Origin: Actinomycetota bacterium
GTDB taxonomy: Bacteria; Actinomycetota; Coriobacteriia; Anaerosomatales; Anaerosomataceae
Assembly (NCBI GenBank): GCA_009773565.1
Contig: WSXY01000002.1
Location: 357,805 to 381,804 of the forward strand
Reading direction: 5' to 3'
Length of the DNA stretch: 24,000 bases
Under the pieces are notes generated by a model that worked only from the letters and a program-made list of their open reading frames with translations, had not been told where the DNA came from and searched no databases. The first letter of the stretch is position 1, and each line of letters opens with the position of its first letter. This document shows positions 1 to 24,000 of this stretch, one piece after another. The translations under genes were made by a program, and so were the position numbers.

Positions 1-1
1 C

Positions 2-1888
2 GCGGACGGGGACTACGACATTGCCGTGCTTATGGGCGGCTACTTGGCGTCGGCCCATGCTCATTTAGGCAATGTTCGGCTAGGTCGAGAGTACGCTCTG
101 CAGCACGCTGTGTTGTCGCGGTACCCCAGGGTTCGCCCGAGTACGCGGGCCCAGGCCCTGCAGCCCACGCTCTTTGTTCTCGGCTTTGTATGTGGCGACA
201 TTGCCACGTCGATCGATCTTCTAAAGGAGGCGATGAAGGAGTTCACGCATCCTGCTGGTCTTGATATTCAGTGCGAGGCTAATCTAGCGGCGTTGTTGGT
301 CGAAACGGGGCGTTTACGGGAGGCTAGTCGACTGACTCGCAGAGTAAAGGCGAGAGTTGCTGAATCTGGGCTTTGCCTCTACTCGGACGCGTGCGTCGGG
401 ACTGAAGCAGCCATACAGGCGGCACTTGGCTGTGAGCGTGAAGCAGAGACGCTCATGACTGAGGCAATTGAACTGGCCAAATGCGCTGAAGACCATCTTT
501 CACTGGAGTACAACCGGGTCTATCGCTCAGTGATGCGAAGGGCTTGTGGCAACTACGACGACGCGCTGATTGACGCCGAGGATGCGCTGGTCGCGTTTAA
601 CGAGCAGAAGAGCGCCTTGCCCATCATGGCGTGTCTCGCACAGTGTGAGGTCGCAGCAAACTTGCTGGTTATTGGCGATCGAAATAGGGCCGCCAAACTT
701 GCCGAGAAGTCGCGCGCCCTCGCTGAGCAGTGGACTGCTGCATACCACTTCCTTCGCGCAGACATGATTCTTGCCGAGATCGAGCGTCAGCGAGGCGACG
801 TCGACGCAGGTGTGGCCCGCATTGCGGCGCACGCTGACTACATTGCGACGGAAAGCGGTAACTGGCAGATTGCCATGTACATCCGCGCGTTTCCAGGGCT
901 ACTCGGCATCTTCTGCATGGCAATGGGCGCTGATGCACTACCCGTCCACATGCTACGGATGGTGCTCCCGGAGTATGCGGCGCGTGCGCTAGATGCCTGC
1001 GCCGATGTTGTCTCGCGAGAGGAGCACGAGCGGCTCTCGGTGCGGCTTCTCGGTCGCAAGGGCGCCACTGCTCGCTCGAAGCATCTCGAGTCCGCACCGG
1101 CAATTCGGGTCCAGCTATTCGGTGGCATGGAAGTCGAGACTCCGAGTGGTCGCATTACAGACAAGGATTGGCGAAAGCGGAAGGCACGACTCATGTTTGC
1201 AATCGTCGTGCTGCAGCGGGGCAAGGATCTTCCGCGTGAGCAACTCTTCGAACACCTGTGGCCCGAGATGACCGAAGAACGGGCGAAGAGCAACTTCTAT
1301 GTGATCTGGAGCATCATGCGTCGGGTGCTCATGGGAACCACCACCGGGGGGCCGTGTCCCTTCGTGGAGCATCAGGCCGGAGTGTGTCGTATCGTGCCAA
1401 GCCTGGTCACCTCTGATGTTGGCGATTTCGAGGATGCGCTTGTTGCGATGCGCCGCGCCGATCGCGCAGGGGATAGTGACCTTGCTCGTGCGGCCGCAGA
1501 TGATGTCGCGCAGTACTACCGTGGCGAGCTGCTCCCGGGGGAAATCTACGACGATTGGCTTGCGCCGATCCGGGACCGCTATCGGCACGACTACGGCGAC
1601 GCGATGCTGCGGGCCGCCTACCTTCATCATGAGGCCGGCGACACCGAGAAGGCCCTGCACATGATTCGAGCCGCACTTTCACAGGATCCGTGGCGCGAGG
1701 ACCTCTACCAGGCAGCCCTTCGCTATCTGATTCACTCGGGTCAGCGAAGCGGTGCCATTGAGATATACACTGCTTGTCGCAGTAAACTTGCCGATGACCT
1801 GGGGCTCGACCCGTCGCTCGAGACGCGTCGCCTCTACGACGAGATACTGGCAATGGAGGATCGTCCGGTCTCCGACACGCTACTCTAG
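2..1888 (+). CDS. SARP/AfsR-type transcriptional regulator: helical-repeat (TPR-like) region followed by a C-terminal OmpR-type winged helix plus BTAD domain; 5' end probably lies outside the window
   Basis: The frame is open from base 2, with no stop upstream of the GTG at 26. The C-terminal ~260 aa fit the SARP pattern: IRVQLFGGMEVE...RKRKARLMFAIVVL...REQLFEHLWPE (wHTH), then YRGELLPGEIYDDW...DPWREDLYQAALRYLIHSGQRSGAIEIYTACRSKLADDLGLDPSLETRRLYDEIL (BTAD). Stop TAG at 1886-1888. Confidence 0.8.
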   Translation, partial: ADGDYDIAVLMGGYLASAHAHLGNVRLGREYALQHAVLSRYPRVRPSTRAQALQPTLFVLGFVCGDIATSIDLLKEAMKEFTHPAGLDIQCEANLAALLVETGRLREASRLTRRVKARVAESGLCLYSDACVGTEAAIQAALGCEREAETLMTEAIELAKCAEDHLSLEYNRVYRSVMRRACGNYDDALIDAEDALVAFNEQKSALPIMACLAQCEVAANLLVIGDRNRAAKLAEKSRALAEQWTAAYHFLRADMILAEIERQRGDVDAGVARIAAHADYIATESGNWQIAMYIRAFPGLLGIFCMAMGADALPVHMLRMVLPEYAARALDACADVVSREEHERLSVRLLGRKGATARSKHLESAPAIRVQLFGGMEVETPSGRITDKDWRKRKARLMFAIVVLQRGKDLPREQLFEHLWPEMTEERAKSNFYVIWSIMRRVLMGTTTGGPCPFVEHQAGVCRIVPSLVTSDVGDFEDALVAMRRADRAGDSDLARAAADDVAQYYRGELLPGEIYDDWLAPIRDRYRHDYGDAMLRAAYLHHEAGDTEKALHMIRAALSQDPWREDLYQAALRYLIHSGQRSGAIEIYTACRSKLADDLGLDPSLETRRLYDEILAMEDRPVSDTLL

Positions 1889-1919
1889 AGACACTCGTTC
1901 GCAAGCGACAGGAGAACCG

Positions 1920-2459
1920 GTGCTGCTGCTCGATGGAATCATCCTTGGACTCATCGCGGGGTTCGCCACGCGTGGGCGTCTCGGCAACCTGGCTCACGCG
2001 AAGCTCAAGGGTGAGTTCGTCATCCTTGGAGTGCTTCTCTTTCAGCTGTCGGTTCCGCGCTTTACGGTGCTGCTCGGACTAACGGGCAGCCTCCCACTGA
2101 TACTGTGGCTCGTGTCGATGGCCACGCTCGTCGCGCTGGCGCTAGTGAACTGGCGCTCTGCGGGAATGGCATTGGCCGCGCTCGGCATCCTGCTCAACAT
2201 TCTCGCAATCGGCTTCAACGGCGCTATGCCCGTGTCGCCCGAGGAGATAGCGCGCCTGTATCCCGGAGTGACGCCACGCTTCGACCTGCTCCATGAGCCG
2301 GTGAACGAGCAGACGCGCCTCACCGGACTGACCGATGTCATCGCAATCCCGGGCCCGCCATGGCACAAAGGAATCGCCAGTCTCGGTGATTTCTTCCTGA
2401 CGATCGGTGCCGGCCTCTACGTCTTTGTGGGGATGCACGAGGAATCTTCCGACGTTTAG
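1920..2459 (+). CDS. Small polytopic membrane protein, DUF5317-like (family name recalled from memory, not verified)
   Basis: GTG at 1920 follows GGAGAA (1911-1916). The upstream part of ORF 1752..2459 overlaps the regulator and is R/S/T-rich out-of-frame-looking sequence. The product VLLLDGIILGLIAGFATRGRLGNLA... has several hydrophobic helices and ends ...SLGDFFLTIGAGLYVFVGM. Confidence 0.7.
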   Translation: MLLLDGIILGLIAGFATRGRLGNLAHAKLKGEFVILGVLLFQLSVPRFTVLLGLTGSLPLILWLVSMATLVALALVNWRSAGMALAALGILLNILAIGFNGAMPVSPEEIARLYPGVTPRFDLLHEPVNEQTRLTGLTDVIAIPGPPWHKGIASLGDFFLTIGAGLYVFVGMHEESSDV

Positions 2460-2768
2460 ATTCTGGTTAGCATCTGTTTAGGTCGAGCCTCTATCGTAGG
2501 TCCCGGCCCGAGTAGTCGGGTCGGTCGACAGGTCGGGGTTCGATCGGTCTCCGGAAGGACGTAGCGAATTTCACAAACGCTTGAGGTGAGGAGACGGGAG
2601 ACTCCTGAGGGGCACTATCAAGCGGGCGAGGAATTCGGACCGGTGGGGCAGCGCCCTTCGACCAGCGAAGCGGGGCGGCTTCGGGCGCACGACCGGCCCG
2701 GAGCCGCTTTCACGCTCGGCAACTGGTGCTGTGAGAGGGGTCGGACGCCGGTTCAAACGCACGTCCTG

Positions 2769-2777
2769 TGTTAGAAT
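2769..2777 (+). promoter_or_regulatory. Candidate extended -10 promoter element TGTTAGAAT for secA
   Basis: TGnTAGAAT lies 45 nt upstream of the secA ATG, with GAGG (2808-2811) as RBS. The same TGnTAGAAT form recurs upstream of ftsE. The -35 is weak. Confidence 0.4.
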
Positions 2778-2821
2778 CAGTGTGCTTTTCCCCACTCAAG
2801 AATCCGCGAGGTTGAGATAGA

Positions 2822-23133: not shown

Positions 23134-23151
23134 GGTGGTCTCCTTTCACGG

Positions 23152-23169
23152 GTCGCGCGTTCGCGCGAC
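23152..23169. repeat. 18-nt palindrome GTCGCGCGTTCGCGCGAC in the dsrE-like/tusA-like spacer (intercistronic hairpin or operator)
   Basis: Read directly from the sequence. It lies 19 nt upstream of the tusA-like ATG, just 5' of its RBS. Confidence 0.6.
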
Positions 23170-23205
23170 GGTGCGCTGACTGTGCAGTGGGGTTCGCTTT
23201 TGCGG

Positions 23206-23694
23206 CTAGATGAACAGAGAGATATCCGCTTCCTGGGCCTTCAGGAGGAAGAAGCCGACACCAACAGGCTCCTTGACGCCCCCAATGAAGGACTCCTGCG
23301 GAATCTCCATTACATCCATGGACATCTGGCACCCGTACATGTTGACGCCGAGGTCGATGGCAAGGTCGCGAAGGTCGATGAGTTTGCTTACGTTGTGATT
23401 ACCCATCATCTTCCCGAACATCCAGCGACCCATCCCACCGAAGCCGAATTTCGAGGGGTTTGACTTGGTGATGTCCCCGCCGTACATCAGGCCGAGCATA
23501 CGACCGAAGAATGTCTTGCCAGTGCTGACGTTCTTCTTGAGCGCGCGCAGGCCCCAGAATGTGAAGAACATGGTGACTTCCATGCCCATCGCGGCCGCGC
23601 CCGTTGCAATGATGAAAGCGCCGAACAGCTTGTCCATATCGCCGCTCATGACCACCATCGCGAGACTCTTCTGATGGCTCTCTTCTTCCGACAT
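23206..23694 (-). CDS. DsrE/DsrF-like (DrsE_2 / YrkE-type) sulfur-transfer family protein
   Basis: LAMVVMSGDMDKLFGAFIIATGAAAMGMEVTMFFTFWGL...NMYGCQMSMDVMEI...EADISLFI matches the family, including the conserved Cys in YGCQMSMD. The RBS is AAGGAGG. Confidence 0.85.
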   Translation of the reverse strand: MSEEESHQKSLAMVVMSGDMDKLFGAFIIATGAAAMGMEVTMFFTFWGLRALKKNVSTGKTFFGRMLGLMYGGDITKSNPSKFGFGGMGRWMFGKMMGNHNVSKLIDLRDLAIDLGVNMYGCQMSMDVMEIPQESFIGGVKEPVGVGFFLLKAQEADISLFI

Positions 23695-23735
23695 CGTGCG
23701 GTCCTCCTTTGTGACTCAGGGTATTTCCACGGCCC

Positions 23736-24000
23736 TCAGGCCGTTTTTGCCTTCTCAGATTCGTCGGTTCCGGCGGTTCGAGCCTGTTCTCCAAGTGATT
23801 CTCGGAGAACATCGGTGATGAGATCGAATGCTGTGATGATCTTAGGGTTCGCGATCGCGTAGTAGATGCTGCTTCCCGCGCGCCGGGTTCGAACCACACC
23901 GCGACTGCGGAGGATGGAGAGGTGTTGGGAAAGCGTCGCCTGGGGGATGTCCGTTTGGCTTGCGATCTCACCGACGGAAACCTCCCCGTCTCGCAGGCGG
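23736..24000 (-). CDS. ArsR/SmtB-family HTH transcriptional regulator, 5'-truncated by the window edge (absent from the ORF track because no start codon lies in the window)
   Basis: The minus-strand frame from 23999 reads RLRDGEVSVGEIASQTDIPQATLSQHLSILRSRGVVRTRRAGSSIYYAIANPKI...EKAKTA and stops at TGA 23736-23738. The HTH-wing pattern is typical ArsR. The stop lies 41 nt upstream of the dsrE-like ATG. Confidence 0.8.
   Translation of the reverse strand, partial: RLRDGEVSVGEIASQTDIPQATLSQHLSILRSRGVVRTRRAGSSIYYAIANPKIITAFDLITDVLRESLGEQARTAGTDESEKAKTA

Follow-up and report, generated by a model that had tools for sequence, protein, structure and literature searches.

Predominance of TAG stop codons in a 24-kb stretch of a Coriobacteriia genome whose release factor 2 carries an SPT tripeptide

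The ratio of TGA to TAG stop codons has a median of 2.2 in bacteria and a mean of 4.75 in Actinobacteria (Trexler et al., 2023, PMC10471768), but published tables give a different picture for the actinobacterial class Coriobacteriia. Supplement 11 of the same study lists relative synonymous codon usage (RSCU), with values that sum to 3 and follow the order TAA/TAG/TGA: 0.32/1.88/0.80 for Olsenella uli (11/63/27%), 0.44/2.07/0.50 for Parafannyhessea umbonata (TAG 69%), 0.52/2.03/0.45 for Parolsenella catena, 1.24/1.39/0.37 for Collinsella aerofaciens and 0.77/1.33/0.90 for Eggerthella lenta. TAG thus accounts for 63-69% of stops in Olsenella, Parolsenella and Parafannyhessea. The means in the family Eggerthellaceae are UAG 44.6%, UAA 34.9% and UGA 20.5%; prfA, the gene for release factor 1 (RF1), is present, and prfB, the gene for release factor 2 (RF2), has been lost twice independently, with UGA reassigned to tryptophan (Parks et al., 2026, PMC13462651). 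Genome-wide TGA shares of 6-20% are found in many Coriobacteriia species, and neither study treats the TAG excess of the class as an anomaly (PMC13462651, PMC10471768). Here we examine the stop codons and the prfB gene of a 24,000-nucleotide stretch of contig WSXY01000002.1 from an Actinomycetota bacterium (the whole stretch is called the window below), in which most genes end in TAG and the tripeptide of RF2 is SPT instead of SPF, the canonical form.

As called, the 26 protein genes with their 3' end inside the window end in TAG 18 times, in TGA six times and in TAA twice, which gives shares of 8/69/23% (TAA/TAG/TGA). TAG ends the SARP/BTAD, DUF5317, prfB, PHP, yitT, tktC, ftsX, S41, hyp13121, rnr, vapC, vapB, M42, arfB-like, hyp19139, dsrM-like, tusA and dsrE genes, TGA ends secA, tktN, smpB, the gene for a small export protein, the dsrK-like gene (as called) and arsR, and TAA ends ftsE and the URO-D-like gene. 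Reading the dsrK-like gene as its intact ortholog is read changes the tally to 19/5/2 (TAG/TGA/TAA); over the two tallies, the TGA/TAG ratio is 0.26-0.33. These counts were obtained from a gene list rebuilt with open reading frames (ORFs), guanine-plus-cytosine (GC) content by codon position, Pfam, NCBIfam, ARAGORN, Rfam and a self-trained codon-usage caller. Window ends were taken from Pfam-verified coordinates, and a caller score of at least 30 was applied to other loci, whose pooled stop shares were stable at cutoffs of 60 and 100. All window proteins were also compared with related loci by tblastn, and ortholog C-termini lay 0-8 residues from nearly every called end.

Under true TAG shares of 0.20, 0.30 and 0.446, the binomial probabilities of drawing at least 18 TAG ends among 26 are 8e-8, 4e-5 and 0.01, respectively, and the 95% confidence interval of the TAG share from these 26 genes is 0.48-0.86. 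This makes it highly improbable that TAG accounts for 30% of stops or less across the genome (P about 4e-5). Three further genes of the same organism, past the right end of the window, end once in TAG and twice in TGA. The initial annotation of this DNA had claimed a TAG majority, with the restored-frame tally as its count and the tally as called as the variant, and had named a sampling fluke and misplaced gene ends as the ways in which it could be wrong. The majority was counted correctly, the intact dsrK-like ortholog, which ends in TAG, backs the restored frame, the binomial test against a 20-30% share speaks against a fluke, and the homolog alignments uphold the gene ends.

TGA is nevertheless a real stop in this genome, as had also been claimed: secA ends just past its SEC-C zinc motif (residues 896-913 of 916), and its orthologs stop at the same residue. 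TGA likewise stands at the conserved C-termini of tktN and arsR, and the domain-complete ORFs of the window contain no in-frame TGA or TAG interruption. ARAGORN found no tRNA genes in the window, only a transfer-messenger RNA (tmRNA). TAG, TGA and TAA all work as stops here, and none of them is recoded in the window. As a further signal, the base at position +4 and tandem in-frame stops were considered for the window and set aside because of the small number of genes.

The RF2 of the window is 100% identical to KAF0208990.1 ("MAG: Actinobacteria bacterium", from a metagenome-assembled genome, MAG), 87-91% identical to the RF2 of "HGW-Actinobacteria-1" and three other MAGs, and 72-80% identical to proteins under the names Coriobacteriia or Anaerosomatales. 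Among its top 120 RF2 homologs (72-100% identity), those with a name belong to Coriobacteriia, Anaerosomatales or Actinobacteria MAGs. GTDB loci with an RF2 55-76% identical to that of the window are from Coriobacteriia genera (Collinsella, Eggerthellaceae, Adlercreutzia, Slackia and Atopobiaceae at 55-60%), and secA-prfB synteny is common to them. Judged by these protein relationships, the window comes from an uncultured environmental Coriobacteriia genome (Actinomycetota) near Anaerosomatales. Four congeners with an RF2 87-91% identical (loci L085, L169, L171 and L172 of our sample) were compared with it using the stops in the database's own gene calls. Fifteen genes are common to the window and the four congeners, and in each congener 8-10 of them end in TAG, 4-5 in TGA and 1-2 in TAA. 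The stops agree with those of the window at nearly all common genes, differing only at tktC, ftsX and rnr. The TAG-rich gene ends are therefore conserved in the congeners.

The RF2 of the window has PCRF and RF-1 domains and a GGQ motif and scores above the curated TIGR00020 cutoff, but its tripeptide is not the SP(F/Y) of canonical RF2. Residues 203-205 (nucleotides 6253-6261) read SPT where canonical RF2 has SPF. The recognition loop is GVHRLVRISPTDEKKRRQTTF; in an alignment to solved RF2 structures, the same site reads ...SPFDSSGRRHTSF in B. subtilis and ...SPFDASGRRHTSF in T. thermophilus. The class-wide form of the loop is SPTD(A/D/E)KKRRQTTF, with D-(A/D/E)-K-K for D-S-G-G and Q-T-T for H-T-S. 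The prfB gene lacks a programmed frameshift, in line with what is reported for every member of the Actinobacteriota surveyed. SPT was found in 120 of the 120 best homologs, in all 80 GTDB loci and in all 40 Coriobacteriia-type metagenome loci, that is, in 241 of 241 with the window (the SPT loci are the window, L001-L080, L089-L127 and L129), and was confirmed in Collinsella, Slackia, Adlercreutzia, Atopobiaceae and Eggerthellaceae. The initial annotation had noted an atypical RF2 tripeptide alongside the stop bias; this co-occurrence is upheld, and SPT is present in the window and in every Coriobacteriia RF2 examined.

Outside the class the tripeptide is different. The best 150 representatives of RF2 clusters at 50% identity comprise 13 SPT, 123 SPF and 7 SPY sequences and 5 with assorted or aberrant loops. 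Eleven of the 13 SPT representatives are the clusters nearest to the window or their fragments, and two are orphans. Of the SPF clusters, those closest to the window carry the names Acidimicrobiia or other Actinomycetota, and since the nearest RF2s outside Coriobacteriia have SPF, SPT is a derived character of Coriobacteriia. The two orphans are divergent: P0151 (366 amino acids, on a 2.7-kb ENA contig; loop SPTDDKGRRHTSF) and P0166 (350 amino acids; loop SPTDVKQRRHTTF) are 44% and 56% identical, respectively, to the RF2 of the window. Their SPT may have arisen independently or may mark a deep relative.

Descriptions of natural RF2s give the tripeptide as SP(F/Y) only (PMC1586002). The Thr of the window RF2 occupies the position homologous to Phe207 of E. 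coli RF2, by alignment with the B. subtilis and T. thermophilus proteins. What this substitution does is the subject of two opposed secondary statements: a passage in Grome et al. (PMC11903333) cites E. coli RF2 F207T as widening recognition to all three stops, while a passage in Shimokawa-Chiba et al. (2019, PMC6881298), citing Ito et al. (2000), has the change from SPF to SPT abolish RF2 termination activity. Omnipotent RF2 mutants are toxic through misreading of UGG (PMC7530605). Our literature search found no paper that names the SPT variant or ties stop usage in Coriobacteriia to release factors, and the variant is apparently undescribed in the literature searched. From the six TGA stops in the window and the 33-46% TGA in SPT relatives, we infer that RF2-SPT is probably competent to terminate at UGA.

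Stop usage beyond the window was surveyed in loci with prfB at their centre, 80 from GTDB and 80 from metagenomes, with genes called by codon usage. SPT loci with an RF2 at least 69% identical to that of the window end genes in TAG, TGA and TAA at 0.48, 0.42 and 0.10, and those at 64-66% identity at 0.54, 0.24 and 0.22. In Coriobacteriales-type loci (1080 genes) the shares are TAG 0.51, TGA 0.09 and TAA 0.40. The control, 40 soil or peat contigs with an SPF RF2, gave TAG 0.36, TGA 0.33 and TAA 0.31. At a GC content of at least 0.57, TGA against the other stops differs between SPT and SPF loci with a Fisher P of 6e-16, a value obtained by pooling related loci. The two groups also respond differently to GC. 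In Coriobacteriales-type loci TGA stays at 0.05-0.15 throughout the GC bins while TAG climbs from 0.45 to 0.64 and TAA falls, and in the SPF control TGA increases with GC, from 0.28 to 0.57. At the GC-rich end, the locus of Adlercreutzia faecimuris (L076, GC 0.73) has 12 TAG and 2 TGA among 16 ends, and another locus (L066, GC 0.66) has 12 TAG among 13 and no TGA.

The initial annotation had called a TAG excess the opposite of expectation. Measured against the bacterial median and the mean of Actinobacteria this stands; for Coriobacteriia, most of which have TAG as their commonest stop in published tables, it does not. TAG at least equals TGA also in Bacteroidetes. The SPF contigs of the control (L128 and L130-L168; GC 0.55-0.68, RF2 loop SPFDQAKRRHTSF) have nearly equal TAG and TGA, 0.36 against 0.33, so that one cannot safely assume for every GC-rich lineage that TAG is the rarest stop. 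The TAG excess is rare overall, yet normal and already tabulated for Coriobacteriia.

Base composition would lead one to expect the reverse. Intergenic TAG/TGA ratios are 0.47-0.61 in all groups, so that TGA is about twice as common as TAG between genes and composition alone predicts more TGA than TAG. Off-frame TAG/TGA is lower still, in the SPF control as well (0.17). Because off-frame triplets follow codon usage, and the control is equally low, we did not retain this ratio as a neutral yardstick. We take the trend across GC bins, in which TAA gives way to TAG and not to TGA, as the better sign of constraint at the stop position.

Our reading is that the TAG excess is very probably the class-typical stop regime of this lineage, maintained by selection, and neither a local oddity nor a change of the code. 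Selection at the termination step would keep the bias by favouring UAG and UAA, which RF1 reads, over UGA, which RF2 alone reads; GC pressure would then pick UAG over UAA. It is tempting to speculate that the loop SPTD(A/D/E)KKRRQTTF alters the performance of RF2, through added reading of UAG or through lowered efficiency at UGA, and that this tilts usage away from TGA. A causal role of any kind for RF2-SPT in the bias is a tentative proposal, which we regard as somewhat less probable than its absence. With the same reservation, a natural change in the specificity of RF2-SPT (a gain of UAG or a weakening at UGA) might drive the class-wide move from TGA to TAG and TAA, and might have predisposed Eggerthellaceae to the loss of RF2 and the reassignment of UGA to tryptophan. 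RF1, whose gene prfA is reported in Eggerthellaceae (PMC13462651), is presumably the main UAG reader in the class.

Several observations weigh against this reading or its mechanistic part. The tally covers 24 kb of the genome and three flanking genes and is not a whole-genome count, and the surveyed loci are syntenic and related by ancestry, so that pooled counts are descriptive and not independent samples. The off-frame ratio, being low in the control too, tests selection only weakly. A tblastn search of the prfB-centred loci of the order, with E. coli RF1 and the window RF2 as queries, detected no RF1 and returned only prfB and an ArfB-like gene. SPT alone does not fix usage: TGA ranges from about 5% to 46% among SPT lineages, and TAG:TGA from 1:6 to 4:1 among SPT loci. 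Five SPT loci with an RF2 69-76% identical (L001-L004 and L038) have 33 genes ending in TGA against 29 in TAG, another (L089) has 6 against 1, and Coriobacterium glomerans has a TGA RSCU of 1.66, that is, 55% TGA genome-wide (PMC10471768). Conversely, TAG equals or exceeds TGA in SPF control loci without SPT, and many members of Corynebacterium and Rothia, considered here without reference to their RF2 motif, have more TAG than TGA (PMC10471768). Simple causation by SPT is also hard to reconcile with the two losses of RF2 after which UAG is still a stop (PMC13462651). Finally, the inactivity ascribed to SPT in the passage of PMC6881298 conflicts with the "omnipotent" citation, and it conflicts as well with SPT genomes that use 33-46% TGA. 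An RF1-type cluster representative, P0216, was examined as a possible Coriobacteriia RF1 and rejected, being low in GC and Firmicutes-like, with an internal duplication.

Two narrower explanations give RF2-SPT a defined role. The first is that it reads UAG besides UAA and UGA, as a natural omnipotent-type factor, so that UAG, served by two factors, would be the safest stop that contains G or C, as UAA is elsewhere. The Phe-to-Thr change at the site homologous to E. coli F207 would fit, as would the invariance of SPT in 240 Coriobacteriia RF2s and its absence from neighbouring classes, the predominance of TAG across the class, and the earlier description of natural tripeptides as SP(F/Y) only (PMC1586002). 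We nonetheless consider this explanation unlikely on balance. RF1 is kept in Eggerthellaceae, and the two losses of RF2 with UAG still a stop make RF2 dispensable for UAG. TAG:TGA varies widely among SPT lineages, the other third-base determinants of the protein are still RF2-like (Val in HRLVR, Arg-Arg in the loop), omnipotent mutants are toxic by UGG misreading (PMC7530605), and SPT is said, in the passage of PMC6881298, to abolish termination.

That same passage, reporting loss of termination for SPT in another RF2, would favour the second explanation, in which RF2-SPT terminates less well at UGA, or RF2 is in short supply compared with RF1, and leaky UGA is selected against and replaced by UAG and UAA. 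TGA shares of 5-15% in Coriobacteriales-type loci even at a GC content above 0.65, the 6-20% genome-wide in many species, and the dispensability of prfB on two occasions in Eggerthellaceae point the same way. The environmental SPT lineages near the window, however, use TGA for 33-46% of their stops, and the essential genes secA and smpB end in TGA in the window itself. On this evidence we judge the poor-terminator explanation rather unlikely.

Competition between selenocysteine (Sec) decoding and RF2 at UGA, which would push stops off TGA, is very improbable. Many Sec-using bacteria are rich in TGA stops, Sec insertion requires a SECIS element, so ordinary stops should be unaffected, and neither Sec machinery nor an in-frame TGA was seen in the window; this outweighs the presence of tRNA-Sec and selB in most Eggerthellaceae, for which Parks et al. 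(PMC13462651) proposed such competition. We give hardly any credence to the explanation that chance in sampling, misplaced gene ends or base composition alone produced the excess. The sample does comprise 26 genes only, hyp19139, vapB and vapC have little comparative support, and the codon-usage caller chose an ORF on the opposite strand at vapC; but the binomial P against a 30% TAG share is 4e-5, domains and orthologs back nearly all ends, the congeners agree under independent gene calls, TGA is twice as common as TAG between genes, and whole-genome data for the class are concordant. Partial recoding, with an amino acid inserted at UGA or pyrrolysine at UAG, can be dismissed almost entirely: UGA-to-Trp exists within the same class (PMC13462651), but prfB is present and intact here (TIGR00020, 460 bits), TGA stands at conserved C-termini, domain-complete ORFs lack in-frame TGA and TAG, no tRNA gene lies in the window, and most genes terminate at TAG, contrary to what pyrrolysine users show.

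The features of the window, with coordinates, strand, stop codon and supporting matches, are as follows.

1-1888, forward: BTAD/SARP regulator, 3' part; TAG 1886-1888; PF03704, about 1100 amino acids in relatives, orthologs in all four congeners (L085, L169, L171, L172) likewise ending in TAG
1920-2459, forward: DUF5317 protein; TAG 2457-2459; PF17248, TAG in all four congeners
2822-5572, forward: secA; TGA 5570-5572; six SecA domains, TGA kept in congeners
5647-6777, forward: prfB (RF2); TAG 6775-6777; TIGR00020, 460 bits against a cutoff of 370
6779-7537, forward: PHP-domain protein; TAG 7535-7537; PF02811, TAG in congeners
7552-8442, forward: YitT-family membrane protein; TAG 8440-8442; PF02588, PF10035
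8443-9294, forward: tktN, transketolase N-terminal subunit; TGA 9292-9294; PF00456, TGA conserved in congeners
9294-10235, forward: tktC, transketolase C-terminal subunit; TAG 10233-10235; PF02779, PF02780, TGA in congeners
10327-11025, forward: ftsE; TAA 11023-11025; PF00005, TAA conserved in close relatives
11015-11929, forward: ftsX; TAG 11927-11929; PF18075, PF02687
11934-13124, forward: S41 C-terminal processing peptidase; TAG 13122-13124; PF03572
13121-13543, reverse: hyp13121, conserved hypothetical protein of 140 amino acids; TAG 13121-13123; no Pfam match, a 140-amino-acid ortholog ending in TAG called in L085, L169 and L171
13665-15773, forward: RNase R (rnr); TAG 15771-15773; RNB, CSD2 and S1 domains
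15770-16192, reverse: vapC, PIN-domain toxin; TAG 15770-15772; PF01850
16179-16469, reverse: vapB, ribbon-helix-helix antitoxin; TAG 16179-16181; PF01402
16638-17699, forward: M42 peptidase; TAG 17697-17699; PF05343
17719-18189, forward: smpB; TGA 18187-18189; PF01668
18288-18636, forward: tmRNA; tag frame ends TAA TAA; ARAGORN, Rfam RF00023 (156 bits)
18708-19076, reverse: ArfB-like GGQ protein of 122 amino acids; TAG 18708-18710; PF00472, below the NCBIfam ArfB cutoff, identical copy called in L081
19139-19513, forward: hyp19139, 124 amino acids; TAG 19511-19513; no family match, identical 124-amino-acid gene in L081
19521-19985, forward: small multidrug-export-like protein; TGA 19983-19985; PF06695
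20005-20853, forward: URO-D/MtaA-like protein; TAA 20851-20853; weak PF01208, NF004889, same 282-amino-acid gene in L081
20800-22164, reverse: dsrK-like Fe-S protein, disrupted; called end TGA 20800-20802, TAG 20955-20957 in the frame of the intact ortholog; NF045796, Fer4, CCG
22157-22882, reverse: dsrM-like membrane cytochrome; TAG 22157-22159; PF02665
22891-23133, reverse: TusA-like protein; TAG 22891-22893; PF01206
23206-23694, reverse: DsrE-family protein; TAG 23206-23208; PF13686, exact protein on 5 other contigs
23736-24000, reverse: ArsR-family regulator, 5' end beyond the window; TGA 23736-23738; PF01022, a 114-amino-acid ortholog in L081 ending in TGA

Several gene junctions are tight. 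The yitT stop abuts the ATG of tktN (TAGATG), and tktN ends in TGATGA (9289-9297), where the stop is overlapped by the start of tktC and directly followed by another in-frame TGA; the TGA of tktN is kept in all congeners. The convergent pairs S41/hyp13121 (13121-13124) and rnr/vapC (15770-15773) each share one palindromic CTAG, in which the TAG stops of both strands overlap. The vapBC pair (15770-16469) lies between rnr and the M42 gene; the four congeners are without it and have about 73 nucleotides between these two genes, so vapBC looks like a recent insertion. A ribosome-rescue trio is found near prfB (17719-19076), made up of smpB, the tmRNA (tag VDTNYALAA) and the GGQ protein of 122 amino acids. 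The dsrK-like gene lacks 83 nucleotides at about 21064 compared with the 97-100% identical contig L081 (GCA_030696935.1), where the ortholog is intact, encodes 427 amino acids and ends in TAG. The frame is shifted by this gap, which also takes out a portion of the second CCG cysteine motif (...ACPCENCRLQ...); either the gene is a genuine pseudogene or the assembly is wrong here.

By itself, the TAG excess extends to a further uncultured lineage the usage, rich in TAG and poor in TGA, that is already tabulated for the class. Its interest lies in the pairing of this bias with a class-wide Phe-to-Thr change in RF2 that is cited as making E. coli RF2 omnipotent. The pairing bears on whether release-factor properties shape TAG and TGA usage or the reverse, and on how a stop codon becomes free for reassignment. 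To our knowledge, Coriobacteriia are the only actinobacterial group with UGA reassigned. If the specificity of RF2-SPT is indeed changed and drives the move in usage, this would be the first case among natural bacterial RF2s of altered specificity tied to a genome-wide shift in stop codons.

In relation to known systems, the window follows the general bacterial pattern in its use of code 11 and, presumably, in having two class-I release factor genes; that pattern has TAG as a minor stop and TGA rising with GC, whereas TGA is flat with GC in Coriobacteriales-type loci. Pyrrolysine decoders avoid UAG as a stop, and the window has a UAG majority. The E. coli RF2 mutants F207T and E167K, described as omnipotent, are engineered, and the window RF2 has the same Phe-to-Thr change as F207T; unlike F207T, SPT in Coriobacteriia is natural, class-wide and invariant and comes with further changes in the loop. 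Equivita and Gorillivita, the Eggerthellaceae with UGA-to-Trp, belong to the same class, and in them the move away from UGA stops has run its full course: prfB is gone, a tRNA-Trp(UCA) is present, GC is low and most stops are UAA, while the window keeps prfB, has six TGA ends and is high in GC. The closest match is with cultured Coriobacteriia such as Olsenella uli DSM 7084 and Eggerthellaceae, which share with the window a GC content of about 60-65%, TAG as the commonest stop, a minority of functional TGA stops and the adjacency of secA and prfB. Unlike these gut organisms, the window is environmental, and its more distant environmental relatives have 33-46% TGA; its own shares of 8/69/23% (TAA/TAG/TGA) are near the 11/63/27% of O. 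uli.

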